The notes below the pieces were generated by a model. The model was given only the letters and a program-made list of their open reading frames with translations. It had not been told where the DNA came from and did no database searches. From the IMG/VR virus record IMGVR_UViG_2600255005_000005: a DNA stretch of 14,025 nucleotides, one strand, 5' to 3'. This DNA comes from a virus (lineage: Duplodnaviria > Heunggongvirae > Uroviricota > Caudoviricetes). The position numbers and the translations under genes are program-made. Below, in pieces: positions 1 to 14,025 of this stretch (its first letter is position 1; every line of letters starts with the position of its first letter).

Positions 1-1479
1 ATGCTGGAAACCGCCTTTCAGGGCGTGAATGCGGTTATTGGCAGTATCAGCAATCTGTTCAGAGATGATGACGAACCGCCAGCGGCGGAGTATATCGCGG
101 AAGGCGCTCGGGATGTGCGTATCAACAGCCAGCCGGCGGCACGCAGCGGGGCACGCTGTACCTGTGAGGCCCGGGTGGTGAATGAGCCGGGGGACGGGGC
201 GTTTGTGTCACCGGATGTCCGCATTGGGGGGTCGTTACTGGTGGTCAGGGATATCAGAAGCGGCAGGTCGCAGATAACCCTGGTGGCAACCGTGGCGCTG
301 ATGTTTCTCCGCCCGGGCAAAATGCTTTCTAAAATCGCCTGTTTTGCTGCCGGTGTCGGGATGAGCATGATAACACAGAAGGCCATCAGCGCCCTTCCAC
401 ATCCGGTCAACGCCGCCACCGGAGCCAAATATCTGGCGGATGACGACGATTTCGACTTCAGCCTGCCGGGTCACTTTCCGCTGGACTGGCAGCGTGTGTA
501 CAGCAGTCGTGACGAGCGCACGGATGGGATGTTCGGTCAGGGCTGGAGTGTGATGTATGAAGTGAGCCTCGAGCGCACACCGGGTAACGCGGACGAAAAC
601 TGCATGACCTTTGTGTCGGGTATGGGGCGACGCCTGGATATGGAAGCCGTGCTGCCGGGGAGCGGGTTTTACAGTCCCGGTGAAGGACTGGCAGTACGGC
701 GTGGTGAGCAGGGGCACTGGCTTATCAGCAGCGATGATGGACAGTTTTTTCTGTTTGAAGCCGACCCGCATCACCCGCAGCGCCAGCGGCTGAAAATGCT
801 GGGCGACCGTAACAGCAACTGTCTGAATCTGTACCACGACGAGCTGGGGCGCATCACGCAAATCAGTGGTGAACAGCGGCGTCCGTGCATCCGTCTGCAT
901 TACGACCTGGCGGCGCATCCCCGTCGGGTGACGCAGATTTATCAGCATTTCCCTGATACTGCACCTTTACTGCTGCGTCGTTACAGTTATGACGCCGCCG
1001 GGCAGCTGACCGGCGTGTACGACAGTACCGGCCACCTGCTGCGCGAGTTTGCCTACAACGATAATCACTGCATGACCCTGCACCGCCAGCCGGGCGGCGA
1101 GGGATATTATTATCAGTGGGGCTGGTATGACGGTCCGGATGACGCAGCGTGGCGGGTGACGGGGCACCACACGGACAGCGGTGAACAGTACCGGCTGGCG
1201 TGGAACCTGGCGGCGCGCAGGCTGTGCGTGACGGACGGTCTGGGGCGCACGCGTTATCATCAGTGGGATGCGCAGAACCAGGTGACGGCGTACCGGGACG
1301 AGGCCGGGCAGGTGATGACGTTCCGCTGGAGCGACGAAGAACGGCTGCTGCTGGGGATGACCGATGCTCAGGGCGGCAGATGGCGCTATGTGTATGACCG
1401 TCAGGGGCATATCACGGAGACGCACGACCCCAGCCACACCAGTGCTATAGCGGGATATCCAGACTGCATGAGCAATTGA
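1..1479 (+). CDS. Rhs-family (YD-repeat) protein, N-terminal fragment with PAAR-like region and hydrophobic segment; truncated relative to full-length Rhs (~1400 aa); 5' end may lie outside the window
   Basis: GC-rich ORF running from the window edge. Contains the Rhs N-terminal signature (LPGHFPLDWQRVYSS...GMFGQGWSV, compare RhsA LPGPLPFILSRTYSS...GVFGPGW) and YD repeats (YDAAGQLTGVYDSTGHL, YVYDRQGHITETHDP). Upstream are a QPAAR motif and a hydrophobic stretch (ITLVATVALMFL...IACFAAGVGMSMI). The last ~13 codons look non-Rhs. Confidence 0.7.
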   Translation: MLETAFQGVNAVIGSISNLFRDDDEPPAAEYIAEGARDVRINSQPAARSGARCTCEARVVNEPGDGAFVSPDVRIGGSLLVVRDIRSGRSQITLVATVALMFLRPGKMLSKIACFAAGVGMSMITQKAISALPHPVNAATGAKYLADDDDFDFSLPGHFPLDWQRVYSSRDERTDGMFGQGWSVMYEVSLERTPGNADENCMTFVSGMGRRLDMEAVLPGSGFYSPGEGLAVRRGEQGHWLISSDDGQFFLFEADPHHPQRQRLKMLGDRNSNCLNLYHDELGRITQISGEQRRPCIRLHYDLAAHPRRVTQIYQHFPDTAPLLLRRYSYDAAGQLTGVYDSTGHLLREFAYNDNHCMTLHRQPGGEGYYYQWGWYDGPDDAAWRVTGHHTDSGEQYRLAWNLAARRLCVTDGLGRTRYHQWDAQNQVTAYRDEAGQVMTFRWSDEERLLLGMTDAQGGRWRYVYDRQGHITETHDPSHTSAIAGYPDCMSN

Positions 1480-1495
1480 TTCATCACGCAGCCGT

Positions 1496-2902
1496 TCATT
1501 CACGGTTTGCATCATTGATTTCCATCAGCATTACACTCTGATTTTTTAATTCATCGATCACTTCCTCTGGACGGGAATCCTGATCGATAAATTTCAACGC
1601 CTGCAACACCCGAACCGCATCAATCTGACGTATATCACCGCCCTGACGCAATGACTGAACAGCCAGCGCGGAGGATGAGTCAAACACCTGGGCAGATACA
1701 TCCAGTTCAGTGCGCACATCCACATTGCCACCGCAACTCTCTCCGCTCCATTCCGCCATTATCTGGAGAATATTATCGAGGGCATCTTCGAGGGAGTTCG
1801 CCATTGTATAAAGCGGCGAGTGTTCCTGCATCCGCTCTTCATTAGTCTGATCAACAGATTTGGTGGATGTATTTTCAGCCCGCAGAAGTTTAGCGCCGGC
1901 ATGACGCATCTGATTTTCCAGCTTCTCAAGTGATGTTTCGCCAGATTCTATCGCTGCGCCACTATGTTCAACATATTCGAGGCCATTTTTTGTTCTGTCC
2001 TCAAAAATCGTAGCGGTGGATGCACCAACCGTCAGTTCTTCATTCCTGTCCAGCCCGTAGGCCACCAGCAATGGAACGCGGGCAACATGAAGAATATTGT
2101 CCTGCTCGCTCTGGCTTTGCCAGTGCTTGATATTCAGCAAGCCAAGATTAAGCAATGGCGGTGTACCACGCATAAACCCTGTTTTCTTCGTATACAGTGT
2201 TACCAGAGGAATATCATCACGGCTGGTATTCCATGACTCATGAAGCATCCAGACAGATTCGCCATTAGTACCTTCGCTGCGTCGATAAATTTCTACTCGA
2301 CGGGGCATAATATGGCGGATCTGCTCCACCTTCTTCTGCCCGAAATCATCACCATCAATAATGATGACCTCTTTTATACGCAAATCAGTGAGAACAACTT
2401 TCCCTTTTTCAACTTTCGATTTCCATCCAATAACCTGGCGTGGATTCAGCATCGTAACGTACGGGCGACCACCGGCCGCGTTTTCATCGGCTTTTGTCCG
2501 AATCTCGTTCATATCCGTTCGTGGATAGTCCACCAGCGCATGTGCCACACCATACTGAAATGCGAGACTGAAAAATTGCTGCGCCCACACATCCAGTCGG
2601 CTCCCCTCCATGTCGATATTTTCTGCATATTCCCTGATTTTTTCCGGCGTTTCCTCACTCAATACTGTCGGCTCTGCAAATATTCGCCCAATATTTTGTT
2701 TGATGCTTTCTTCATACACAGGAAGTAGCGTAGCCACAGACAGGCGTTTTTTATAAGCGTCTTCATCTTCATTAGGCCATTTGGGGAGATAATTTTCCCC
2801 CTGCCTGCGCATTTCAAGCGTACCGCCCATCAGTGCGTCGTTAATATCCCACGCCTCCAGCATATCGTTATAGTCGAGGTTGGGTGTTGATATATCAGCC
2901 AT
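1496..2902 (-). CDS. putative phage portal protein (called by position immediately downstream of terL)
   Basis: 468-aa acidic protein. ATG at 2902 lies 2 nt after the terL stop (2905-2907). Gene order terS-terL-third gene is the canonical place for portal. No diagnostic motif recognised. Confidence 0.45.
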   Translation of the reverse strand: MADISTPNLDYNDMLEAWDINDALMGGTLEMRRQGENYLPKWPNEDEDAYKKRLSVATLLPVYEESIKQNIGRIFAEPTVLSEETPEKIREYAENIDMEGSRLDVWAQQFFSLAFQYGVAHALVDYPRTDMNEIRTKADENAAGGRPYVTMLNPRQVIGWKSKVEKGKVVLTDLRIKEVIIIDGDDFGQKKVEQIRHIMPRRVEIYRRSEGTNGESVWMLHESWNTSRDDIPLVTLYTKKTGFMRGTPPLLNLGLLNIKHWQSQSEQDNILHVARVPLLVAYGLDRNEELTVGASTATIFEDRTKNGLEYVEHSGAAIESGETSLEKLENQMRHAGAKLLRAENTSTKSVDQTNEERMQEHSPLYTMANSLEDALDNILQIMAEWSGESCGGNVDVRTELDVSAQVFDSSSALAVQSLRQGGDIRQIDAVRVLQALKFIDQDSRPEEVIDELKNQSVMLMEINDANRE

Positions 2903-2904
2903 AA

Positions 2905-4215
2905 TTAAATCCGAAGTGATGTGACTCTTCCGGTCGGTTTGACAATAGGGAATTGCTTAACGATGAAATAACCTCCGGCATCATTCGGGTGATCATTGCC
3001 AGATTTTTTATCAGGCTCCCCCTTATCATCCCAGACCTGTTGCTCCAGAGATTCGGCATATACCGGACAACGCTTCACATTAACTTTATAGCGACGCTCA
3101 CCATTGGCATTGCAGAACATTGCATTCATTGAGTTAACGCGATCTTTTACTGGCGGGTTCGAGCTGTTCACCACAACGTTAAAACCTGCCTGCTTAAGCT
3201 GGGCTATATCCGTCGTACTTGCGTTACTTGATTTTCTGGAATCTCCGGAAGCATCTGGATAAATATAAATCTCCCTCACTTTCCGGTAATCATGCCCGTC
3301 ATACGGCCAGAAGCGTTCTTTAATGATGCGGATCATATCCGGCGTATCGTAGGCATTGATGATTTCAGTTACCGCACATGGAAGCCCCAAACGCAGCACA
3401 TGGACGATTCCCGCCATCTTTCCAACGTTAAAATCCATCCCAATATAAATCGGCTCCCCTGGCTGCTCCACTTCTTCGCAATTATTCAGTTTCCGGTCAA
3501 ACTGATGGTAAACAGTACCACTTGTCAGGTTAGTAAACTGTCCTCGCAGATAGGCTTTAATCAGCTCTGGAGGGTATGATTCAAGAAGCGAAGGAATGTA
3601 ATCTGCTGGCAGGTTCTTTTCATTATCGAAAGTAGATGCCTGCACCAGACCATACAGTGAGGCCAGCTCTGTTTTTTCACGCACGGCTTTAACAAACTGC
3701 TCGTAGACAAATTTGAATCCTTCCGGCGTGGTTGTAACGTCAATACCGTTGCGAAGTCCATCAATCTTATAACGCATACGCGCAATTATCTTGCGCCACG
3801 CCGTTCTGGCTTTTTCCTTCGGCAAAATGTCCAGTTCATCCACCAACGCATTACCAATTTTGAAACCGACGATCGTTTGTGGCTTCTCCATCGATCTGCA
3901 GATAGTGGTTCCCCGATACTGGCGTCCGTAATAAAAGTGAACCTCTTTATTTCCCTCATTAATTTTTACGTTCAATCCCCAGTCAGCAGCAACTTCTTCC
4001 ACTGTAGGGTAAAAAATATCGCGAATTTGGGGATACGTTGGCGCAAAATATCCCTGATTTATACCTGGATGCTCCCAAATCCCCTTGCATATGCCGCCAC
4101 ACCCAACCCATGTTTTGCCCGAGCCAAAACCAGCAATATAGGCTTTAAATTTATGGGGCATTGAAAGAAATCGCGCCTGAGGCACATTAAGCGTCGGAGA
4201 GATCATCTTCATCAC
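2905..4215 (-). CDS. terminase large subunit (ATPase/nuclease)
   Basis: Walker A AGFGSGKT and Walker B-like LVDELD, with a C-terminal acidic nuclease-like region (IYIGMDFN, YIYPDASGD). Start is ambiguous among ATGs at 4215, 4212 and 4206; AAGGAG precedes them and favours 4212. Overlaps the terS 3' end. Confidence 0.85.
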   Translation of the reverse strand: MMKMISPTLNVPQARFLSMPHKFKAYIAGFGSGKTWVGCGGICKGIWEHPGINQGYFAPTYPQIRDIFYPTVEEVAADWGLNVKINEGNKEVHFYYGRQYRGTTICRSMEKPQTIVGFKIGNALVDELDILPKEKARTAWRKIIARMRYKIDGLRNGIDVTTTPEGFKFVYEQFVKAVREKTELASLYGLVQASTFDNEKNLPADYIPSLLESYPPELIKAYLRGQFTNLTSGTVYHQFDRKLNNCEEVEQPGEPIYIGMDFNVGKMAGIVHVLRLGLPCAVTEIINAYDTPDMIRIIKERFWPYDGHDYRKVREIYIYPDASGDSRKSSNASTTDIAQLKQAGFNVVVNSSNPPVKDRVNSMNAMFCNANGERRYKVNVKRCPVYAESLEQQVWDDKGEPDKKSGNDHPNDAGGYFIVKQFPIVKPTGRVTSLRI

Positions 4216-5281
4216 TCCTTACTCTGGCATCAACCACATTAATATTGATCGCCACAGGCTGGGGATGTTCATTATCTTCCACCGTTTCGATCTCTTTGCG
4301 CAGCTTCTGGTTTTCCATTCTGCGCCGTTCAATTTCCAGTTCCTGTAGCCGCTTATCTGCACATAAAGCCCCGCCAGCAGAAAGCAAACGCAACAATTCA
4401 CGCCGGGCGGCAGCCTTATCCTCCAGCAGGATCTCAACGCCGAATTTTCCGAATTTTGCCCCTGCATATAATTGCCGCGCATCCCCATCAAGCAGAGTGG
4501 TATCAGCCATATAAAGCTGTCCCGTTCCCTCACCGCAGCACTTCGGGCAGTCCGGATTGGGTATGGCGTTATCAACAAAGCCGAGGCCTCCATATTCCGG
4601 TTCGGGTTTGCCATCTCTGGAAGCCTGCGCCGCTGCCTTGTCGAATTCTGCTATATCGCGCCACTGGTAGAGATGATTCTCGCCCCAGCAATAACGGCAG
4701 TTAACACGGCGAAATTGTGCAAGCTGATTGGGGTCGGCCAGGACAATGGCCATCAACTGACTCACTAGTAAATCCAGGTCTGCGGTATAGCGTTTCTGGT
4801 ACTGATTGCGGAAGTAGCTGATAGCGCGAAAAACCCTGGCATTTCTAAGCATACGACTGGCGTTGCTGTTAGCTGTCGCACCTTGCCCCTCATAACCGGC
4901 TAGTCGGTACGCCTCTGTCGGCTTTTTACCCTGAGCAACAAGCATCGCAAACTTAGCCTGCTGGTCAGAAATGCCGAATTCATCGGGACAGAACGAAAAT
5001 TCCTCCGCGTCGCCCTCATTCAGGCCCGCATCGAATACTGGCTTTTTTTCCTGAGATTTTTCGTTCCGCTTTTGTGCAGTCTGCGTAGATTTTTTCTGCG
5101 CACTTTTTTGCGCAGTTTTGCGCATTTCTGTCTGCGCATTTTTCGGAGTTTTTTTGATGTAACGACGGGCTGTTGCGTAATTCAGTCCCCTTGCTTCACA
5201 CCATGCCACCGGAGATATACCGGAGCGGGTGTATTCAGCAATATACTCCTGCTGCAACGCCCCCCAGTCCGGTCTGCTCAT
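4187..5281 (-). CDS. terminase small subunit-like DNA-binding protein (unusually long, 364 aa)
   Basis: N-terminal HTH-like region (GISPVAWCEARGLNYATARRYIKK), a Lys/Gln-rich low-complexity linker, a terminase-small-like segment (KKPTEAYRLAGYEGQGATANSNASRMLRNARV), a Cys cluster (CRYCW...CPKCCGEG) and a C-terminal coiled-coil-like tail. Sits immediately upstream of terL with overlap. Confidence 0.6.
   Translation of the reverse strand: MSRPDWGALQQEYIAEYTRSGISPVAWCEARGLNYATARRYIKKTPKNAQTEMRKTAQKSAQKKSTQTAQKRNEKSQEKKPVFDAGLNEGDAEEFSFCPDEFGISDQQAKFAMLVAQGKKPTEAYRLAGYEGQGATANSNASRMLRNARVFRAISYFRNQYQKRYTADLDLLVSQLMAIVLADPNQLAQFRRVNCRYCWGENHLYQWRDIAEFDKAAAQASRDGKPEPEYGGLGFVDNAIPNPDCPKCCGEGTGQLYMADTTLLDGDARQLYAGAKFGKFGVEILLEDKAAARRELLRLLSAGGALCADKRLQELEIERRRMENQKLRKEIETVEDNEHPQPVAININVVDARVRSDEDDLSDA
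5073..5138. repeat. phased array of palindromic hexamers TGCGCA (4 perfect plus TGTGCA and TGCGTA), each followed by a T-tract, at ~10-14 bp spacing inside terS
   Basis: Read directly: tgtgca(5073), tgcgta(5082), tgcgca(5097), tgcgca(5109), tgcgca(5119), tgcgca(5133). Confidence 0.6.
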
Positions 5282-5284
5282 CAG

Positions 5285-5536
5285 TTAGTCCTGATTTTTA
5301 TCCACCCTGAGTAGTTCGCGCAGAGCAAAGGCATCCCCTTTTCTGGCAAGCTTAAACAATGCCGCTCGTAACTCGGCTTCACCTTTCGCTCTGCCCTTAC
5401 GGATGGCCGCATAAAAATCTGTCATTGCTTCCCGATTTTCTTTCAGTCGGTTCAGATCAACATCCAGAACGTCAGCGATTTGTTGTGCAGTCATCCGGCA
5501 CGCTGCCAGAGACTCGACTTTCGAATACGGAATCAT
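5285..5536 (-). CDS. hypothetical small protein (83 aa), possible DNA-binding helper of packaging
   Basis: ATG at 5536 preceded by GGGGTGA. Stop lies 3 nt before the terS start. Basic, helical composition. Confidence 0.45.
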   Translation of the reverse strand: MIPYSKVESLAACRMTAQQIADVLDVDLNRLKENREAMTDFYAAIRKGRAKGEAELRAALFKLARKGDAFALRELLRVDKNQD

Positions 5537-6404
5537 TTGTCACCCCCATTGATATGCAGGGTGTCTTCTTCCTGTATTTTTCGTGAAGGATTTTTACTGC
5601 AGCGTTGTTCCAGGTGACCTGATGGTGAATGCGTTTATGGCTGGCACCCATCAGTGAAATTTTTACGCACGACGGCGCATACATGACGGAGTAAAAACTT
5701 TTAACGTAGGTTCCGGAATCCAGATACAGCTCGGTCATTCCGCCGCTGTTTTTCTGCGTCTGTTTCTGCCCTAACTGGACAGCACCGATCGTCATAAACA
5801 ATTCACCACAGCGACCGAGATTCGTGTACGTATTCACATCCTCGTTAATGCGCCCCATGAATGAGAACGGTCGATCAACCGAACAGATAAAGCTGTTCAT
5901 TGCCTTGCGTTTCACCCACGAAGCATGGCCGCCATTGTCACCAAGAAAATCCCCGCCCTGCGACATAGCGATGGAAAGAGCAGGTATTGATTCGTAGTAC
6001 GCCAGCATTTCAGAAAGGATCGCATCCAGTTTCCTTATCGGAAAATAGGCCTGGTCATAGTTGCGATCCACCCGAAACTGGAACTCGTGATAATCATCAT
6101 CGAGCTGAATGAAGTATTTACACCCGACCAGTTTTGCCAAGTCGAAACAGGCATTACGGGCGTAAAAAATTGAGCGGCGGTCACAGAAATTATCGGCTTC
6201 GTCAAAACGACTGGCGATATCGGCTTTGGAAAACACCAGCACCTGTTCACCAAATTCAGCCATGTACTGATGCCGTGTCTTATCTTCATCATCAACAACG
6301 ATAAAAATTTTCCCGGTATAGCCAGCACGACGCAACGTCCGGTAAGTCAGAACTTTGTCCGGTCGCCCGTGAGTCAGAATAAAGGCGCAAAAATCATCAC
6401 GCAT
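5472..6404 (-). CDS. hypothetical protein with GT-A-fold glycosyltransferase-like motifs (soluble, ~310 aa)
   Basis: Ordered motifs FILTHGRPD, IFIVVDDED and FIQLDDDYHEF (DxD), with no hydrophobic TM segment. Preferred start is the ATG at 6404 (MRDDF), which overlaps the ParB-like stop as ATGCGTGA and is preceded by GGAGGAGGA; the longest ORF would start at 6425. Confidence 0.5.
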   Translation of the reverse strand: MRDDFCAFILTHGRPDKVLTYRTLRRAGYTGKIFIVVDDEDKTRHQYMAEFGEQVLVFSKADIASRFDEADNFCDRRSIFYARNACFDLAKLVGCKYFIQLDDDYHEFQFRVDRNYDQAYFPIRKLDAILSEMLAYYESIPALSIAMSQGGDFLGDNGGHASWVKRKAMNSFICSVDRPFSFMGRINEDVNTYTNLGRCGELFMTIGAVQLGQKQTQKNSGGMTELYLDSGTYVKSFYSVMYAPSCVKISLMGASHKRIHHQVTWNNAAVKILHEKYRKKTPCISMGVTNDSVFESRVSGSVPDDCTTNR

Positions 6405-7188
6405 ATTCCTCCTCCTCACCACCATGCATGATCTCCACCATGCGCTGCGTCATCCGGACAAATCCATTTTCAATAGCCTGCTGATAATCAATGATCACCA
6501 GCGCCGACTCCTCGAAAAAACACTGAATTTCAGCGGGGGCGTGAGCGTAATAGTCCGCAATTCTGCTGAAATTAAACACCGTGTGACGTTCTGCCGCACA
6601 CAGGAGGAATTTCTCAATATCAGGCTCAAGGGAAGCCAAACGTATCCGGCTGATCAGCTCCTGCGTTTTCGTATCGTCGTACAGTTCACTGATATCCGGT
6701 TTACCGCCCGACGGCTCATAAACAGGCGTATCAATTTTCGTCGTATACGGCTCCTCCTCATTTCCTGTACCGGGCAAAACATCCGTCAACAGTTCATCAA
6801 TTTCTGTCGGGATGAAGCCTGTCAGGGAGACATCAAAATCAGCATTGATTAGGTCCGACAGCTCCATCCGCAACAGATCTTCATCCCAGCCAGCATTCAT
6901 CGGCAGGCGATTATCTGCCAGGCGGTACGCCTTTTTCTGCTCATCCGTCAGGCCAGACAGAACAATGACCGGAACAGAATCCATTTTGAGCATTTCAGCC
7001 GCCATAACACGACCGTGACCCGCAATAATTTCGCCCTTTTCGTCAATCAGCACCGGATTAGTCCAGCCGAATTGCTTAATACTTTCTACCAGTTGTGCCA
7101 CCTGCTCAGGGCTGTGCGTCCTGGCGTTGTGCGCATACGGTGACAATTCTTGTAATGGGCGATAGACTATCTTTAATTTCTCGCTCAT
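6397..7188 (-). CDS. ParB-like nuclease domain protein
   Basis: ParB/Srx N-terminal signature (NPVLIDEKGEIIAGHGRVMAA) followed by an acidic C-terminal half. ATG at 7188 with AAGGA just upstream. Confidence 0.75.
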   Translation of the reverse strand: MSEKLKIVYRPLQELSPYAHNARTHSPEQVAQLVESIKQFGWTNPVLIDEKGEIIAGHGRVMAAEMLKMDSVPVIVLSGLTDEQKKAYRLADNRLPMNAGWDEDLLRMELSDLINADFDVSLTGFIPTEIDELLTDVLPGTGNEEEPYTTKIDTPVYEPSGGKPDISELYDDTKTQELISRIRLASLEPDIEKFLLCAAERHTVFNFSRIADYYAHAPAEIQCFFEESALVIIDYQQAIENGFVRMTQRMVEIMHGGEEEEYA

Positions 7189-7202
7189 ACATCCTTGCTT
7201 TA

Positions 7203-7240
7203 TGAATAAAACGCACCCCAGCAGCCAGTGCTACTGGGGG
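7203..7240 (-). terminator. candidate intrinsic terminator downstream of trkG
   Basis: On the minus strand a ~10-bp stem hairpin (CCCCAGUAGC / GCUGCUGGGG, 4-nt loop) is followed by UGCGUUUUAUU. Confidence 0.4.
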
Positions 7241-7325
7241 CGGAGGTGTTGCTGGTAAAGTTAGGTATTGGATCAATGAGTGAGTCAACATAATATTAAA
7301 CTCACAATTATAAATCAGCCATATA

Positions 7326-8783
7326 TTAGGAGCGCCAAAAAAAACCTGAAAACAATATAATAACAGGATAAATTTCAAGGCGACCAAGAATCATAGCTAT
7401 GCACATTAAATATTTTGCAATGTCATTAAGCACTCCGAATGACGATGCAGTAGCCCCAAAACCTAATCCCATATTATTAATACATGCAGCCACTGTTGCA
7501 AATGATGTAAGAAAATCATATCCCATACCATTTAACACCAGTATAAAAAACACCGTGAAGAGAGTATAAAGAAAAAAGAAACTCCATACAGACCTCATTA
7601 CACGATCTGTAACTATCTTCCCTCCTACATTTACACTCAACAACGCTCTGGGATGAGAAAGCTGATTTATCTCGTGTTTGCTTTGTTTGAAAAGTATAAG
7701 AAATCGAAGTGACTTAATTCCACCACAAGTTGAACCTATACATCCCCCAAAGAAACTTGACAACAGCAAAAACACTATCGTGTGCGTGGGCCAGCTTGCA
7801 TAATCCTGCGTAGCTAAACCATTATCAGTGAGCATGGAGCTGGCAAGAAAAAACGAATGAATAAAACTTCCATGCAAGTCATACATACCTATATGCCAGA
7901 CCTGGAAAGAGGTAACAATGATCACCCCTAAGGCTATTAACAGAAAGAAACGAAGTTCAATATCTCTGATTAAAGGTTTTATCGTTTTCCTGCTAATAAC
8001 AATATACCAAAGAGTGAAGTTGAAAGCCGATAGCAGGGAAAAAGAACCAGCCACCAGCTCAACCAAATAGTTATTAAAATATCCGATACTCTCGCTATGA
8101 GTTGAGAAACCACCAAGCGAAACTGTGGAAATCCCGTGACAAATAGCATCAAACAAAGGCATTCCTGCAAGTCTATAACAGACAATACAAGCAATACCTA
8201 ATAAAGAATAAGTTATCCACAGTGTCCGTGACGTATCGGCCAGGCGGGGAGTGAGTTTGTCATCCTTAAATGGCCCCGGCATTTCTGACTGATAAAGCTT
8301 TGCACCACCAATACCCAATAATGGCAATACAGCAACCGCCAGAACAATAACTCCTAAACCACCTATAAAATTTAACTGTGACCGATAGTACAAATATGCC
8401 CGAGGTAATGAACTAACATCATCAATTACAGTTGCTCCTGTTGTTGTTATTCCAGAAACCCCTTCAAACAGAGCATCAATGAACGTTAAATTAAGTTCTG
8501 AGTCAATCCATAAAGGGAATGCACTAATAACAGAAAACAAAATCCAAAACATTACAATTATAATAAACCCATCACGGGTACGTAATTGAATGCCAGATTT
8601 CTTAGTTGTATACCACGCTCCGCCACCAATGCAAAAAAATATAACGAAAGTTATAAAGAAAACGAATAGGCTTTTTTCTTTATAAAACAATGCTACAACC
8701 ATTGGTGGCAACATTGAAAGACTATAGAGCCAAACCAGGAACCCACACATATGAGTAACAACTCTTACATGAGATGTATTCAT
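7326..8783 (-). CDS. trkG: TrkG-type potassium uptake protein (Trk/Ktr/HKT family membrane transporter), prophage moron
   Basis: Multi-pass membrane protein whose sequence matches what I recall of E. coli Rac-prophage TrkG (MNTSHVRVVTHMCGFLVWLYSLSMLPP...), with repeated pore-loop glycine motifs. Strongly AT-rich relative to its flanks. First ATG at 8783; an in-frame TTG at 8801 has AAGGTGG 6 nt upstream and is an alternative start. Confidence 0.9.
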   Translation of the reverse strand: MNTSHVRVVTHMCGFLVWLYSLSMLPPMVVALFYKEKSLFVFFITFVIFFCIGGGAWYTTKKSGIQLRTRDGFIIIVMFWILFSVISAFPLWIDSELNLTFIDALFEGVSGITTTGATVIDDVSSLPRAYLYYRSQLNFIGGLGVIVLAVAVLPLLGIGGAKLYQSEMPGPFKDDKLTPRLADTSRTLWITYSLLGIACIVCYRLAGMPLFDAICHGISTVSLGGFSTHSESIGYFNNYLVELVAGSFSLLSAFNFTLWYIVISRKTIKPLIRDIELRFFLLIALGVIIVTSFQVWHIGMYDLHGSFIHSFFLASSMLTDNGLATQDYASWPTHTIVFLLLSSFFGGCIGSTCGGIKSLRFLILFKQSKHEINQLSHPRALLSVNVGGKIVTDRVMRSVWSFFFLYTLFTVFFILVLNGMGYDFLTSFATVAACINNMGLGFGATASSFGVLNDIAKYLMCIAMILGRLEIYPVIILFSGFFWRS

Positions 8784-8920
8784 ATCTAAATATTCTTTCA
8801 ATTATAACCACCTTGCTGCAATATTATGATTATACTGTATAAAATTTAACTCCTCTTAGATCTTACTTCACTGTTCCTTATGAAACAATCATCAAAATGA
8901 ATCATATTGTAGTTAAGATT

Positions 8921-9385
8921 TTACTTTAAACACTGTTCGGTTATGTATTGCTGAGCACCTTCAAGTTGGGCCTGCATCATTACCAGTCGTTCCCGGAGGG
9001 TGAAATAATCCCGTTCAGCGGTGTCTGCCAGTCGGGGGGAGGCTGCATTATCCACGCCGGAGGCGGTGGTGGCTTCACGCACTGACTGACAGACTGCTTT
9101 GATGTGCAACCGACGACGACCAGCGGCAACATCATCACGCAGAGCATCATTTTCAGCTTTCGCATCAGCTAACTCCTTCGTGTATTTTGCATCGAGCGCA
9201 GCAACATCACGCTGACGCATCTGCATGTCAGTAATTGCCGCGTTCGCCAGCTTCAGTTCTCTGGCATTTTTGTCGCGCTGCTCTTTGTAGGCGGTGGCGT
9301 TATCACGGTAATGATTAACAGCCCATGACAGGCAGACGATGATGCAGATAACCAGAGCATAAATAATCGCGGCGACTCTGCTCAC
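8921..9385 (-). CDS. Rz-type i-spanin (lambda Rz-like)
   Basis: Near-identical over most of its length to lambda Rz as I recall it ([21 protein letters not shown]...[33 protein letters not shown]...). GTG start at 9385 overlaps the lysozyme TGA stop (GTGA); the longest ORF begins at a TTG at 9400. Confidence 0.85.
8980..9165 (-). CDS. Rz1-type o-spanin lipoprotein, embedded in the +1 frame of Rz
   Basis: Signal peptide plus lipobox (LPLVVVGC) and a proline-rich mature part ([24 protein letters not shown]), matching lambda Rz1. Lies entirely within Rz. Confidence 0.85.
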
Positions 9386-9921
9386 TGATCTATCCCCCAA
9401 CAGGCTAATGCGCTTTCCTGGTCACGACGAATAACCTGTCCATAGCAGTTATTTGAACGTATGCGGCAATCGCGCCCACCATCTTTTATCCACCAGCGAA
9501 TCGCCTCGCATGCACCCTTACGATCACCGGCATTCAGCCGCTTATAAAACGTCGACGGGAAACACTTACCGGGGCCAATGTTATAGGGACAAAATGACGC
9601 TATACCCGCTTTCTGTGGTTCGGTCAGTGGTACTTTAATATTGCGCTCCACCCATGCCAGCGCCTTATCACGTTCAATAGCGTTAACCTGGTCGCATTTT
9701 TCCTTCGACAGCCTCATTCCCGGTATGACGGGCTTACCATCCACCATTGTGGCACCACGACAGATGGTCCATATACCGGAACCATCGCGGTATGCCGTTG
9801 TGTGGTTACCTTCTTTTTCATCCAGAAACTGGTCGAGAATATCAGGCGCAGGCGCAGGCGCACCGACGGCAATCAGTGCCAGAACGGCAGCCGACAGGCC
9901 GTATCTGATTTTTGCGTTCAT
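9382..9921 (-). CDS. phage lysozyme (GH24-like), probably SAR-type endolysin, resembling Qin RrrQ/YdfQ
   Basis: Catalytic E-x8-D-x5-T arrangement ([18 protein letters not shown]). N-terminal weakly hydrophobic Ala/Gly-rich segment ([20 protein letters not shown]) fits a signal-arrest-release domain. Partnered with an S21-type pinholin. Confidence 0.85.
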
Positions 9922-9981
9922 GGATATTTATCAGGATTTATCGGTTTCTGAACCCTGGATATGTTTATCTGTCCCGGCCTG

Positions 9982-10012
9982 TTGAATCAGGCAAGGAATA
10001 GTTAAATACAAT
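9982..10012 (+). promoter_or_regulatory. candidate sigma70 promoter for the plus-strand 90-aa gene
   Basis: TTGAAT (9982-9987) and TACAAT (10007-10012) with a long 19-bp spacer, followed by SD AGAGAGGA and the ATG at 10027. Confidence 0.25.
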
Positions 10013-10026
10013 AGAGAGGATTGTTT

Positions 10027-10299
10027 ATGGACAATAGCACCATTTCTCTACAGGAGTTGCTCGACTGCATTTCCAAGCTTCGGGATGATGTAAATGCCCT
10101 TACTGTCGCATTTTCATATCTGGCATTCTCAATTCCCAAGGAACAAATGCAACCAACACTGGCATCGCTCCAGCTTGAATCACTCAACCCCAAATGGTCC
10201 CAGCAACAACAAAATTCTTTCAAGTGGCTGGCGGTATTACTGGAAGAAAAATATGCTGGTGAAATTACCATTTCGGCGGAGTCTTCAGTGAACCAGTAA
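10027..10299 (+). CDS. hypothetical protein (90 aa), antisense-oriented gene inserted inside the lysis cassette
   Basis: ATG at 10027 with SD AGAGAGGA 7 nt upstream; helical E/K/L-rich composition. Its 3' end overlaps the 3' end of the convergent 114-aa gene by 35 nt. The ORF track's 10021 start is a TTG. Confidence 0.5.
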   Translation: MDNSTISLQELLDCISKLRDDVNALTVAFSYLAFSIPKEQMQPTLASLQLESLNPKWSQQQQNSFKWLAVLLEEKYAGEITISAESSVNQ

Positions 10300-10609
10300 T
10301 TCTTCCCGGCAGTTTTCCTTTGTAGGTTATCCACACACCCTGCGCCTCTAAAATTATGGGGCGCTTTTCCGGTGACTGCTCATCCCCTTCACATAACCCT
10401 GCAGCAACATCCAGGAAGACCTGTCTGATGCTCCTTCTGGCTGCTGCCTCATAAAACTCCAGCGCGGCACCTTCAACACGGTCCAGCGAGATGTCCAGGT
10501 CTAAAATTTCACCGTCAAAGCGTTTTTTGTCCCGTAACGCTAAAGTTACCGTAACTTTATTCTCAAAATTGCGGATCCCTTTCACAATCAGTTCATAGTT
10601 TTGAGTCAT
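10265..10609 (-). CDS. hypothetical lysis-cassette protein (114 aa), in the position of Qin ydfR between holin and lysozyme
   Basis: ATG at 10609 lies 4 nt after the holin stop, with GGGGAGAG upstream, so it is translationally coupled to the holin. Soluble, charged protein. Confidence 0.6.
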   Translation of the reverse strand: MTQNYELIVKGIRNFENKVTVTLALRDKKRFDGEILDLDISLDRVEGAALEFYEAAARRSIRQVFLDVAAGLCEGDEQSPEKRPIILEAQGVWITYKGKLPGRITGSLKTPPKW

Positions 10610-10613
10610 TGAA

Positions 10614-10829
10614 TTACTCTCCCCGTGCAGCCTTACGCTTATCTTCTTTAATCTTGAAATAAAGATTTGTCAGATACGTCAACAGGCCAAACACCAGACT
10701 ACCCAGCACACCTATTGCTGCCCACTGTGAGGGCGTGACTCTATCGAGCAACTGTAAAAACCAGTAGCCAGCACTGCCTGCGGAGGTGCCATAGGCGACA
10801 CCTGTTGTTAACTTATCCATGGATTTCAT
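10614..10829 (-). CDS. class II holin (phage 21 S / EssQ-EssD type pinholin) with dual-start motif
   Basis: [71 protein letters not shown] closely matches S21 as I recall it: two TM segments, a Met1-Lys-Ser-Met4 dual start and a charged C-terminus. The upstream in-frame extension to 10922 is rejected. Confidence 0.85.
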
Positions 10830-11168
10830 AACCCCCACCTCGCAGATGCGGGCGCTGTGTAATGGAAACAAAAAATGGCCACCAGCGGCCCGTAAAAAAC
10901 ACCCCGTCAAAAGCACCGGCATCCGCAGATGCCCTTTGCGTGGCGTTATTTGATGCGCGCCAGGTGTGGCGCAAAGAAATGAAATAAGACTTATCGAAAA
11001 TTAAGGTTAATTTGATGATTTAAACCACTTCTGAAGCTTAGTAGTATGAACATGTCCCCAGAAGGGGCCAATACTTATTATTCTTCATGGACTTTGTCCC
11101 GCGGTCTTAATCCGACGACCGCGCTACTTTTCACCCTCTCGCAAATTGCTATCTAAAGGACGTTGTCC

Positions 11169-11201
11169 CACGAGTATTCCTGTATGCTCGTGTCTTTTTT
11201 T
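11169..11201 (+). terminator. candidate plus-strand intrinsic terminator
   Basis: CACGAG...CTCGTG stem with a long 12-nt loop, followed by TCTTTTTTTTG. Confidence 0.3.
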
Positions 11202-11212
11202 GTCCTGAGAAA

Positions 11213-11243
11213 GGAATAAAAAAAACCGCCAGATATGGCGGTT
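11213..11243 (-). terminator. strong minus-strand intrinsic terminator
   Basis: On the minus strand AACCGCCA-UAUC-UGGCGGUU (8-bp stem, 4-nt loop) followed by UUUUUUUUAUU. Confidence 0.55.
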
Positions 11244-11605
11244 GGTCAATGCAAGGGATGAATTTTTTAATTGTTATTAAACCGAGGCGTCGGGTGCCTC
11301 CCGAAGTATTCCGTGCTGCATGGATACTGTGGTTTCCCGCTAAACCGACTCTTTAAACCACCCTCGCACTGAGGAGCGCCTCTGTGGTGCTTTTACAACA
11401 CCAAAATGATGCATCACCGACCCTGCCAGGAAATACAAAATCTCCACCGATAATGCACCATTCTGCTGCCGTAAAAAATTAGCACTGAGGCTACACCCGG
11501 CCTCAAATCATAGCCAGAGAACAGAATGCTTTTTCAAAACAACCTGCTCCCACGTAATAAAAAAATACGCCAGTGCCGTAATACAATAAGGCTTGTTTTA
11601 AATGC

Positions 11606-11680
<75 letters not shown>

Positions 11681-11683
11681 ATA

Positions 11684-11759
<76 letters not shown>

Positions 11760-11777
11760 ATTGGTTCTTCAGGGGAG

Positions 11778-11803
11778 CGATATCACCGAGCGATATCACC
11801 GAG
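11778..11803. repeat. perfect tandem direct repeat, 2 x 13 bp (CGATATCACCGAG)
   Basis: Read directly; lies 18 nt upstream (transcript sense) of the tRNA-Thr 5' end. Confidence 0.6.
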
Positions 11804-12004
11804 CAAAGAAGAGTTCCCCCTCAGAACCGTTTTCGATGATACGATTTAATATTCCAATCGCAACAACACTTTGCGTCAAGCTATGTAAATTTATTTATGT
11901 ATTTTTATTTTATGTGAACATTTCACCTTCACTTAAAATATACGCGACAATATATAAACAAATTTATTTTGAAGGCAATATTAAATGTCGTTTCTTATAT
12001 CACA

Positions 12005-12040
12005 CCATAATAACAACAAAACCCGCTTGATGGCGGGTTC
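12005..12040 (-). terminator. candidate tR'-like intrinsic terminator downstream of the Q-like gene
   Basis: On the minus strand AACCCGC-CAUCAA-GCGGGUU followed by UUGUUGUUAUUAU, about 85-120 nt downstream of the Q-like stop. Confidence 0.45.
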
Positions 12041-12091
12041 TATTAAAGTTTAATTGCGCTTGATTCGCCTCGCGATACAGCTTTGCGAAGC

Positions 12092-12128
12092 GTAGCAAAA
12101 TTGAAGCAGTTTACGCGTAAAAAATCAA
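12092..12128 (-). promoter_or_regulatory. candidate late promoter (PR'-like) at the 3' end of the Q-like gene
   Basis: On the minus strand TTGATT, a 17-nt spacer, then TTCAAT. Weak hexamers; the call leans on the position between Q and the terminator. Confidence 0.2.
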
Positions 12129-12667
12129 GCCGTTTTTTGAGCGAATGATTCTCGCATGGGAATGTATAGCGCATACTCAGCAACGGCCAACCAATTAGCA
12201 ATTCGCTTTTCGCATGTGCTAAAACACCACTCTGGGTGTGCATCATTTAGCAATTCAGCCATTTTGCGTTTGGTCATCCCCCGCCCCTCATACCGTTGCC
12301 GAAGGACGCTAATCAATCCTGGATGCTCTGCCAGCACCTCACTTATGACCCGATCAATACATAACGCCTCTGCATCAGTACAATGCGCCAGCCAGCTCTT
12401 TTGCTTGCCGTTGATCATCTCTCTCAAAAACGCTTCCAGCTCAGCTTTCTCTATTCCCGCTTTTTTCATTCTGCGCAGGGCTTCATTGATGGCTGTTTTC
12501 GTCAATTTTTTGGATGCCAACAACTGATTGAACATATTTCCTGACCTGCCACCGCCAATATACGACCAGCGCCCCCACATACGCAGTTTGCCCTGAATCC
12601 AGACACTTTCCAGCGTGGCGAGACGAAGGTGTTCTCCGCTTTTTCCTGTATTCGTTGGGTAAATCAC
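12125..12667 (-). CDS. putative late antiterminator Q-like protein
   Basis: Last gene of the nin-like cluster, immediately upstream of the terminator/tRNA/lysis region. GTG start at 12667 overlaps the upstream TGA (GTGA) and has AAGGAGGG 7 nt upstream. Contains an N-terminal W-G-x-W motif and Cys residues. The longest ORF to 12787 would overlap the upstream gene by 124 nt. Confidence 0.5.
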   Translation of the reverse strand: MIYPTNTGKSGEHLRLATLESVWIQGKLRMWGRWSYIGGGRSGNMFNQLLASKKLTKTAINEALRRMKKAGIEKAELEAFLREMINGKQKSWLAHCTDAEALCIDRVISEVLAEHPGLISVLRQRYEGRGMTKRKMAELLNDAHPEWCFSTCEKRIANWLAVAEYALYIPMRESFAQKTA

Positions 12668-12954
12668 AAATATCCCTCCTTTCTCCAGATTTCTTGTGTG
12701 CGAAAAACACCTTCTGCATGCATCAGGCGTAATTCTTCTTTGGTGTAATCGCTGGTTTTTACCCGCCCGTCGATTAGATCGTGGCATGAGCTACAGGCAA
12801 TCGCCGCCTGCATATCGTGTGGTTTTGTCGCTATTCCGCACGTTCCCGCCAGTCGGTAATGCGCCAGCACAGACGTTTCCGGATCGTGATTGCAGTAGCC
12901 AGGAATTCTGACGGTGCACATCTGCCCCCGCGCCGCTTTACGTAAATCCACCAT
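12664..12954 (-). CDS. DUF1364-family protein (YbcO-like putative nuclease of lambdoid nin regions)
   Basis: 96 aa, MVDLRKAARGQMCTVRIPGYCNHDPETSVLAHYR...IACSSCHDLIDGR, with the conserved Cys pattern I recall for DLP12 YbcO. Its ATG overlaps the upstream stop (TAATG). Confidence 0.7.
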   Translation of the reverse strand: MVDLRKAARGQMCTVRIPGYCNHDPETSVLAHYRLAGTCGIATKPHDMQAAIACSSCHDLIDGRVKTSDYTKEELRLMHAEGVFRTQEIWRKEGYL

Positions 12955-13553
12955 TACGCAAACTCCAGCAGCTGCGCGGCCACATTTTCGACTTGTTCCG
13001 GAGAGGAAAATTTACGGAACAGAATCCAGTTCCACAGCACATTCAGAACAGATTTATAAACCTGCTGAAACTCGGTTTCGTCCATATTCGCAAAAGCGAT
13101 GGATTTCGCCCGACGCCCATGGCTACCGTCCGGATAAAAATGTTCGGTGTAAAATCCAGCCTGAATGGTTACCCACTCGCGAAAAGCCTCAAACGACTTT
13201 AGCAATGCCGTATCCCGAGTTCTGCGTGTCGCAACTGTATTCAGATATTGCTCTGCGGCATCACTCAGGGCTGGCGTGTGTTCCCGACCAACTGATTCGC
13301 ACAGGTAATCAACGAAACCAGACAGCAGTTCTCGTTCGCGAGGCGTGATCGCCCCACCGACCGGAGTCCAGTAATCGAATCCCAGTTGCAGGAGTTTGAA
13401 AAAACGCTTGTGGAATGCGTAGTTACGCACACGCTTAAAGTCTGCGTGTATCCACTCACCTATTTTGATTTGATGCAGAAAATCGCAACTCTCCGGCGTC
13501 GCCGGGAGAAGTAAACCAGAAGAGGTTTGTTTGACCAGTTGTATATGCGCCAT
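12954..13553 (-). CDS. lambdoid nin-region protein of unknown function (possibly DUF1367-like)
   Basis: 199-aa ORF with ATG at 13553, translationally coupled to the downstream DUF1364 gene. Family assignment is from memory of the sequence style (KRVRNYAFHKRFFKLLQLGF...) and is tentative. Confidence 0.6.
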   Translation of the reverse strand: MAHIQLVKQTSSGLLLPATPESCDFLHQIKIGEWIHADFKRVRNYAFHKRFFKLLQLGFDYWTPVGGAITPRERELLSGFVDYLCESVGREHTPALSDAAEQYLNTVATRRTRDTALLKSFEAFREWVTIQAGFYTEHFYPDGSHGRRAKSIAFANMDETEFQQVYKSVLNVLWNWILFRKFSSPEQVENVAAQLLEFA

Positions 13554-13828
13554 TTCTCAATCTCTCGATGGCGCAGTGCAGCAGATGCCAGTTGTTCAGG
13601 CTGACGTATAAAGTATAAATAAACTGGTTCCAGTGTAAAGCCCCCACATTGATGGAATAAAAATCAAACAATAGATTGCTGGGATAAAAATACAACGCTT
13701 ATTATTAAAAGCGGTTAGACAAATTAAATTTTAATGTTATGCAAATCTGCCAGATTAGCATAATATCTCATTTGAAAACCGCTGAAATAACAATCTTATC
13801 AGGATTAATCATATTAAGGTGAGTAAAT

Positions 13829-13915
13829 ATGGAAAACAACAAATCTGCACATTACGCTCCTTTTTTATCTATAATACTTTTTGTATTTTGTTGTGTATGG
13901 GCGGTATTTTTATAA
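13829..13915 (+). CDS. candidate small hydrophobic peptide (28 aa, MENNKSAHYAPFLSIILFVFCCVWAVFL)
   Basis: SD AGGTGA 5 nt upstream of the ATG. Polar N-terminus followed by one hydrophobic helix-length segment. TAA stop lies 15 nt before a perfect 14-bp inverted repeat. Below the ORF track's length cutoff. Confidence 0.3.
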   Translation: MENNKSAHYAPFLSIILFVFCCVWAVFL

Positions 13916-13930
13916 AACACACCCACAAAT

Positions 13931-13960: not shown

Positions 13961-14025
13961 ATATAGTTGTTATACGGAAACTGGCACACGAGCAGGCAAT
14001 GGATAGTGAGCCCAGTTATTAGCAT

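Follow-up and report, generated by a model that had tools for sequence, protein, structure and literature searches.

The viral record IMGVR_UViG_2600255005_000005, analysed here as a single stretch of 14,025 nt (the window), begins with a forward-strand open frame of 492 codons (positions 1–1479, with an ATG at base 1) that combines a PAAR motif with Rhs sequence and runs into phage DNA. A preliminary description made from the letters alone raised the possibility that this frame is the orphaned N-terminus of a type VI secretion system (T6SS) effector, that is, a delivery domain with no toxin. The question is whether the frame is such a module in its own right and, if it is not, how it came to have this form.

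The profile matches of the translated frame were far beyond chance. The Pfam PAAR_motif profile (PF05488) matched aa 30–60 (E=1.1e-5) at 26.0 bits, slightly short of its gathering score of 27, and scored 29.0 bits when aa 1–130 were scanned separately. The QPAAR motif of the preliminary description lies inside this match at aa 44–48 (nt 130–144). The PAAR-like region is present but amounts to half a domain, as the match spans profile positions 39–69 of 70 only; the segment (88–180, + strand) is the C-terminal half of a split PAAR domain. The NCBIfam model T6SS_PAAR_dom reached 14.6 bits (cut-off 124). Further along, DUF6531 (PF20148) was matched at aa 134–212 with 70.1 bits, followed by four RHS_repeat matches (Pfam), four YD_repeat_2x matches and a weak RHS_core match (both NCBIfam). 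With these four repeat hits the Rhs part ends at codon 477, and the frame contained no DPxGL motif, no PF03527 match and no toxin. A motif search of the 492 aa for the prePAAR motif AARxxDxxxH was also negative. GC content along the window changes from ~0.62 to ~0.50 near nt 1440.

An exact match of the translated frame placed the window on record AEMF01000001.1 (GCA_000208585.2), a 4.46-Mb pseudomolecule from a 2011 draft genome. The accession belongs to Escherichia sp. TW11588, which was isolated from soil and is a member of cryptic clade IV, now E. ruysiae (PMC12446263, PMC7716201). Positions outside the window are given in source coordinates covering the window and its flanks (L004, where 11430 is window position 1430). 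Window position 1 was found to correspond to nt 784 of a full-length E. coli rhs gene, with 93% nucleotide identity over 1–1430. Immediately upstream in TW11588 is a 269-aa open reading frame (L004 9219–10028) in another frame, which overlaps the 492-aa frame by 28 nt. Alignment placed the cause of the frame change at L004 9937–9943, 57 nt before window position 1, where TW11588 has a run of seven A's instead of eight. The run of eight is kept in six of six other copies of the gene (E. coli AR_0077, 2017.09.02CC and ECMA0423, one Shigella and both E. ruysiae copies). Because of the missing A, gene callers restart at an internal methionine; with the run repaired, the first methionine of the window becomes residue 262 of the full protein. 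The ATG at position 1 is accordingly placed by this alignment inside the gene, as Met262, and not at its start.

Extension of the frame upstream recovered what the window lacks. In the repaired protein a prePAAR motif, AARQGDALLH, is present at residues 7–16 by regular expression, and the source gene does carry this element, although the Pfam prePAAR_I profile scored only 11.7 bits on the repaired N-terminus against a cut-off of 25. The only region with a 19-residue Kyte–Doolittle mean of at least 1.6 is at residues 17–81 (maximum 2.27), upstream of both PAAR motifs, which are at 113 and 306. The two PAAR halves occupy residues 94–122 (profile 5–33) and 291–321 (profile 39–69) and jointly score 41.8 bits with Pfam, with a charged insert of ~170 aa between them in the intact protein. 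The first PAAR half, the prePAAR motif and the transmembrane domain (TMD) are all upstream of the window, and in this assembly they are in a different frame. The 492-aa frame is therefore not the N-terminus, and a continuation of the frame upstream is what the preliminary description had itself named as grounds for refutation.

Class I prePAAR effectors are defined as Rhs proteins that carry AARxxDxxxH, have one TMD region ahead of a 'split' PAAR domain and depend on an Eag/DUF1795 chaperone (PMC7773334). A prePAAR motif and a single TMD before PAAR were found in the repaired gene and in its intact orthologues. An Eag-type chaperone gene (DUF1795/DcrB, PF08786; L004 8748–9200, 150 aa) ends 18 nt before the true start of rhs, and the near-identical E. 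ruysiae Eag protein scored 69.1 bits. The source gene of window 1–1430 is classified by these features as an ordinary class I prePAAR Rhs effector gene, carried by TW11588, and the window segment (+ strand) comprises its codons 262–738 by homology to full-length genes. Of the neighbouring genes that might be expected, the chaperone gene was found, but vgrG is reduced in the TW11588 assembly to its last ~35 nt, with narI/RtT DNA before it. The upstream nar genes were considered as the narZYWV genes of the E. coli rhs neighbourhood and this was rejected, as BLAST identified them as narGHJI followed by RtT repeats. Likewise, TGGTGGTGGGGGAAGGATT upstream of eag was considered as a tRNA-Tyr att-site remnant and rejected, being the 3'-tRNA-like part of an RtT repeat; ARAGORN found no tRNA there.

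The hydrophobic stretch downstream of the PAAR half was confirmed at aa 92–132 (274–396, + strand), but it is not of transmembrane grade: its 19-residue Kyte–Doolittle mean peaks at 1.35, where the usual transmembrane threshold is 1.6. It is interrupted by R104, K107, K111 and K127, and its uncharged runs are 12 and 14 residues long. The best PDB match was 7Q97, RhsA of Pseudomonas protegens (phmmer, E=3e-111 over residues 287–759). In RhsA, a seal peptide (268–275) and an amphipathic anchor helix (289–302) bound to the inside of the cocoon precede an autocleavage site at H304|P305 and a cork at 305–386 (Guenther et al. 2022, PMC8765631). All of these plug features were matched by alignment. 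The window sequence PGKMLSKI (aa 105–112, nt 313–336) aligns to the seal KGKFLSNL, and aa 125–132 (nt 373–396) align with a 6-residue gap to the anchor helix SQATNALTQAVVAS. The site PH|PVNAATGAK aligns to TH|PVHAATGAK of RhsA, which makes H134|P135 (400–405) the equivalent of H304|P305, with cleavage itself predicted. The sequence DDDD at aa 147–150 (439–450) matches RhsA D318–D320, and the DUF6531 match (aa 134–212, nt 400–636) aligns to the RhsA cork and is the putative cork part of the N-terminal plug. The remaining Rhs sequence (637–1430, ~265 residues) would be the start of the Rhs/YD-repeat cocoon, with ~4 of the 13 repeat hits of the intact protein. All of these features are on the + strand.

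The stretch at aa 92–132 is therefore best described as a PAAR-to-plug linker with seal-peptide and anchor-helix equivalents. Class I prePAAR effectors have one TMD region, N-terminal to PAAR (PMC7773334), and the class II motif GxxxxGxxLxGxxxD was absent from the window frame. Because the stretch is below the transmembrane threshold, lacks the class II motif and aligns to the RhsA plug, it is assigned to the Rhs plug and not to a second TMD or a membrane anchor. The anatomy of the gene is settled by the sequence match to a PDB entry together with the intact orthologues, and the function predicted for each segment is taken from homology to RhsA and Rhs1. The layout proposed in the preliminary description was correct in that the frame does come from an Rhs effector that bears PAAR and is delivered by the T6SS; the hydrophobic segment that had been read as a TMD is instead equivalent to the plug.

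These results bear directly on the idea that the frame is an orphan which could still work as a T6SS delivery module, in which PAAR, a TMD and the start of Rhs would load onto VgrG with no toxin attached. The PAAR motif hit and the neighbouring Eag gene are what such a module would be expected to show. However, neither the prePAAR motif nor the TMD to which the chaperone binds is encoded in the frame, and the first half of PAAR is missing too. PAAR folding and VgrG binding depend on the prePAAR motif, and Eag binding on the TMD (Ahmad et al. 2020, PMC7773334). The hydrophobic stretch that is present is homologous to plug elements that need a complete cocoon, and there is no vgrG in the assembled TW11588 locus. 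Since it is without prePAAR, the TMD and half of PAAR, the frame could not act as a delivery domain, and we regard the orphan module as exceedingly improbable. Whether the truncation is an artefact or a genuine pseudogene, the frame is not a functional orphan delivery domain.

At the other end of the frame, homology to rhs stops at 1430 and homology to prophage DNA starts at 1431, giving a blunt junction at 1430/1431. At this point the intact gene reads ...CACGACCC|AATGGGGCGGG; past the break the rhs sequence continues as ...AATGGGGCGGGTGTCGCAGAC. Positions 1431–1479 (+) contribute the last base of codon 477, 15 further codons (SHTSAIAGYPDCMSN) and the stop, all non-Rhs and read antisense from phage DNA. 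On the opposite strand to rhs, 1431–1512 are the first 82 nt of the 'minor head protein' gene of a Rac-like prophage, cut at the junction; in E. coli Yu5 this coding sequence occupies 12970–14082 of the compared region (L001), and the window match begins at 14001. The prophage portal gene (DUF4055; 1496–2902, – strand) begins a 13.1-kb Rac-like block whose gene order follows that of E. coli prophages at 99.7% identity; from 1431 the window is 100% identical to Rac-like prophages of E. coli. No microhomology or insertion sequence (IS) was found at 1430/1431, and the rhs/prophage junction was present in 0 of 5426 complete E. coli genomes. The prophage block cuts genes at both ends. Its far end, at about 14533/14534 in window numbering and so beyond the window, is inside an S8-peptidase gene and abuts an ampG gene truncated at about codon 171, beside yajG-bolA-tig-clpPX-lon. 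An end of the block at IS1, as in one related locus (L016), was considered and rejected, since IS-free phage homology runs 157 nt further.

The 492-aa frame thus exists because of two discontinuities, the missing A upstream and the blunt join at 1430/1431. We consider it most likely, with a probability of roughly 80%, that the truncation is an artefact of the draft assembly in which contigs were concatenated and bases dropped, and from the following comparisons we infer that neither the joins nor the frameshift are real mutations.

The first comparison concerns the TW11588 block between the two suspect joins (L004 8667–11430, 2.76 kb). It is 99.89% identical to both E. ruysiae copies, differing by two SNPs and the A-run, and this identity stops exactly at both joins. 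The two E. ruysiae loci have unrelated upstream DNA and are identical to each other from 8666 (GGCGATAGAT...), which is where the TW11588 block starts after narGHJI/RtT. A real breakpoint at that base would be a coincidence of about 1 in 2000, by our estimate for a random breakpoint within ~10 kb. A block start at the boundary of identity between paralogues is what is expected of a collapsed-repeat contig. In the draft genome E1V33, the same repeat is a stand-alone 4.4-kb contig that starts ~27 nt from the boundary. The 3' break at 1430 does not follow this pattern. In the finished E. ruysiae genome it is not a repeat boundary, as the copies are identical for another 1.9 kb, and in E. coli the 400 nt on each side both occur at a median of two places per genome. 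A contig end at 1430 is thus not accounted for by a repeat boundary, which counts against the artefact reading.

The second comparison concerns the wider region. Three blunt, gene-cutting joins were found within ~16 kb, in the order RtT / vgrG'-eag-rhs' / phage minor head gene ... S8 peptidase / ampG'. The four blocks that they connect are far apart in E. coli, and neither IS elements nor homology were found at the joins. Five single-A deletions were also found in ~31 kb, one each in the conserved genes narH, rhs and lon and two in narJ. Against an artefact, only the rhs and lon deletions, two of the five, fall in long homopolymers, and those in the nar genes were called by comparison with E. 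coli alone; in a search of the E. coli collection for a clade IV genome, the best match over the nar segment had only 97.1% identity. No frameshifting indel was found in the phage block (12.5 kb) relative to E. coli. The papers that cite TW11588 contain nothing on how the assembly was made.

The same observations may be read as a genuine rhs pseudogene, in which a real slippage frameshift in the A8 run and illegitimate rearrangements left a dead remnant fused to a prophage and to nar/RtT DNA. The rhs loci are prone to rearrangement and A8 runs slip in vivo, the deposited sequence has exactly such a structure, and the 3' break is away from any detectable repeat boundary. However, this history would require three independent blunt illegitimate joins in ~16 kb without IS or homology, one of which would have to coincide with the base at which the paralogues of a sister strain become identical. 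The block is also undecayed, at 99.9% identity to the intact copies, and narH, narJ and lon carry single-A frameshifts at the same time, a sign of consensus error. A pseudogene is accordingly considered unlikely.

The A-run may also be read as a regulated split, in which the A8 run is a switch operated by slippage (phase variation or transcriptional) with A7 as a genuine OFF or alternative state from which the 269-aa prePAAR-TMD-half-PAAR product arises. The run is kept at the nucleotide level in the six E. coli, Shigella and E. ruysiae copies despite ~7% divergence elsewhere, and class I effectors encoded by two open reading frames do occur naturally, as a small subset (PMC7773334). Those natural cases are split after a complete PAAR domain and not inside it. 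Moreover, the run encodes K-K in QKKAA, so that coding constraint can explain its conservation, and the same assembly drops single A's in unrelated housekeeping genes. A regulated split therefore appears very unlikely. It is just as doubtful that A7 and the relocation both reflect the true genome, with the A8 run in the split PAAR acting as a slippage switch that silences the effector or giving a separate prePAAR-TMD-half-PAAR polypeptide, and the eag-rhs' remnant fused to the prophage.

Under the preferred reading of an assembly artefact, a contig that represents a collapsed two-copy repeat, the 2.76-kb vgrG'-eag-rhs' block, would have been pasted between unrelated contigs of the pseudomolecule. 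A consensus that systematically drops A's would have produced A7 and with it the frame break in rhs. The intact protein carries prePAAR, an Eag-shielded TMD, the split PAAR, the linker/seal/anchor segment, H|P, the cork, the cocoon, an aspartyl autoprotease and a C-terminal toxin; it would ride on VgrG through PAAR and deliver the caged toxin. For annotation, the analysis locates both parts of the split PAAR domain, the seal and anchor segments, the H|P site and the cork in an Escherichia class I prePAAR Rhs protein, and identifies the hydrophobic stretch after PAAR as part of the plug and not a membrane anchor. It also serves as a caution that an open reading frame set by a gene caller in an old draft pseudomolecule can mimic a toxin-less orphan delivery domain. 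Recognizing the frame as a slice of a standard effector gene avoids a false lead.

The closest structural reference is RhsA of P. protegens (7Q97). Both proteins share the second PAAR half, the linker/seal/anchor segment, the H|P site, the acidic patch DDD(D), the cork and the initial YD repeats. A 'CxKHP' segment and the first PAAR half can be aligned further upstream as well, and the Eag/DUF1795 chaperone logic is the same. In the Escherichia protein the charged insert that separates the PAAR halves is longer and the anchor-helix region is 6 residues shorter, which is ordinary family variation. In the window the TW11588 gene is moreover cut on both sides, at Met262 and codon 477, and cocoon closure, the aspartyl protease and the toxin are missing.

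The closest relatives by sequence are intact genes. The two rhs loci of the finished, species-representative E. ruysiae genome CABVLQ01 (L006 and L007) are 99.9% identical at the nucleotide level over window 1–1430 and encode proteins of 1550 and 1552 aa. The E. coli rhs gene of the ansP–pptA locus (e.g. WP_249827432, AR_0077) is 93% identical and encodes ~1555 aa; in both species eag is likewise directly upstream. The L006 gene is behind tssM-tagF-vgrG-eag, and the L007 gene is between kdpDBA and phr with an EndoU toxin at its end; a full vgrG together with tssM and tagF occurs both at L006 and in E. coli, where rhs comes after vgrG and closes a T6SS cluster. An intact orthologue has 13 repeat stretches and a PF03527 match (RHS core end) at 1334–1369, with EndoU in one copy. 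In contrast to the TW11588 gene, the intact orthologues have A8, are complete and are never beside nar/RtT or a prophage head gene.

Three other known arrangements resemble the window frame in part. Class II prePAAR effectors (Tse6-like, with PAAR between two TMD regions) share a hydrophobic segment downstream of PAAR, whereas the segment here is below the transmembrane threshold and homologous to the Rhs plug, there is no class II motif and the protein is of the Rhs type. The two-ORF class I effectors, in which a prePAAR-TMD-PAAR frame precedes an Rhs-toxin frame (Ahmad et al. 2020; PMC7773334), are similar in that the TW11588 gene is also called as two overlapping frames of 269 and 492 aa, but the split in TW11588 is inside PAAR and at a 1-nt homopolymer deletion unique to this copy. 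Orphan rhs modules lie downstream of a main rhs gene and consist of the 3' end of the core, a different toxin tip and an immunity gene, whereas the window piece is 5'-internal (codons 262–738) and is followed by phage DNA, with neither a toxin nor an immunity gene. The window gene is thus of an already-known kind, represented by near-identical intact copies in public genomes, and does not depart from its family.

The Rac-like prophage segment occupies window positions 1431-13917, within a block that reaches about position 14534 in the source sequence, and carries portal, terminase, TAGT, ParB-like, trkG and lysis genes together with a Q-like region. This segment is matched at 99.7-100 % identity by prophages in many Escherichia coli strains, whereas the chromosomal genes that flank it in TW11588 have only about 92-95 % identity to E. 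coli. On these sequence comparisons, the difference suggests either that phage was exchanged across species very recently or that the assembly is contaminated.

The far end of the block is a third blunt join, between a prophage S8-peptidase gene and ampG, located just past the window end at 9492/9493 of L018, the downstream TW11588 extract (about window 14533/14534). At this join the peptidase is a 102-aa remnant, compared to 754 aa elsewhere, and ampG is cut near codon 171; there are small indels in A-runs close by.

Single-base deletions, each of an A, were observed outside the window in narH and narJ (positions 6538, 7691 and 7756 of the upstream extract, L004) and in lon (L018, about 3490-3500, in GATAAAAAATT). 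The missing bases break narH into 379 and 136 aa and lon into 64 and 734 aa, and join narJ to narI as a 461-aa frame. This recurrence across genes suggests a systematic loss of A's from the TW11588 consensus.

In the E. ruysiae representative genome, both intact rhs loci (L006 and L007, 8666-13501 in each) have in common an identical 4.7-kb 5′ block, consisting of eag, preceded by the vgrG 3′ end (35 nt) and followed by the initial ~1370 rhs codons, 3′ of which they part into different toxin tips. One tip is EndoU; the other matched nothing in Pfam, and a 171-aa ORF lies after it. Directly upstream of the rhs copy at kdp-phr there is no vgrG.

Among the prophage genes, a TAGT/GREB1-related glycosyltransferase-like protein (PF20691) and an adjoining ParB_N/Srx-like protein (window 5472-7188, minus strand) could constitute a phage DNA-modification pair. 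The latter is intact at 263 aa, compared to a partial ynaK in the E. coli Yu5 annotation. The minus-strand lysozyme gene (ORF 9382-9921) encodes 179 aa versus 177 aa in Yu5, owing to an in-frame 6-nt CAGGCG duplication at 9843. Two phage-borne tRNA genes of the late region, tRNA-Gly(TCC) and tRNA-Thr(TGT) (11606-11759, minus strand), are likewise included in the Yu5 prophage annotation.
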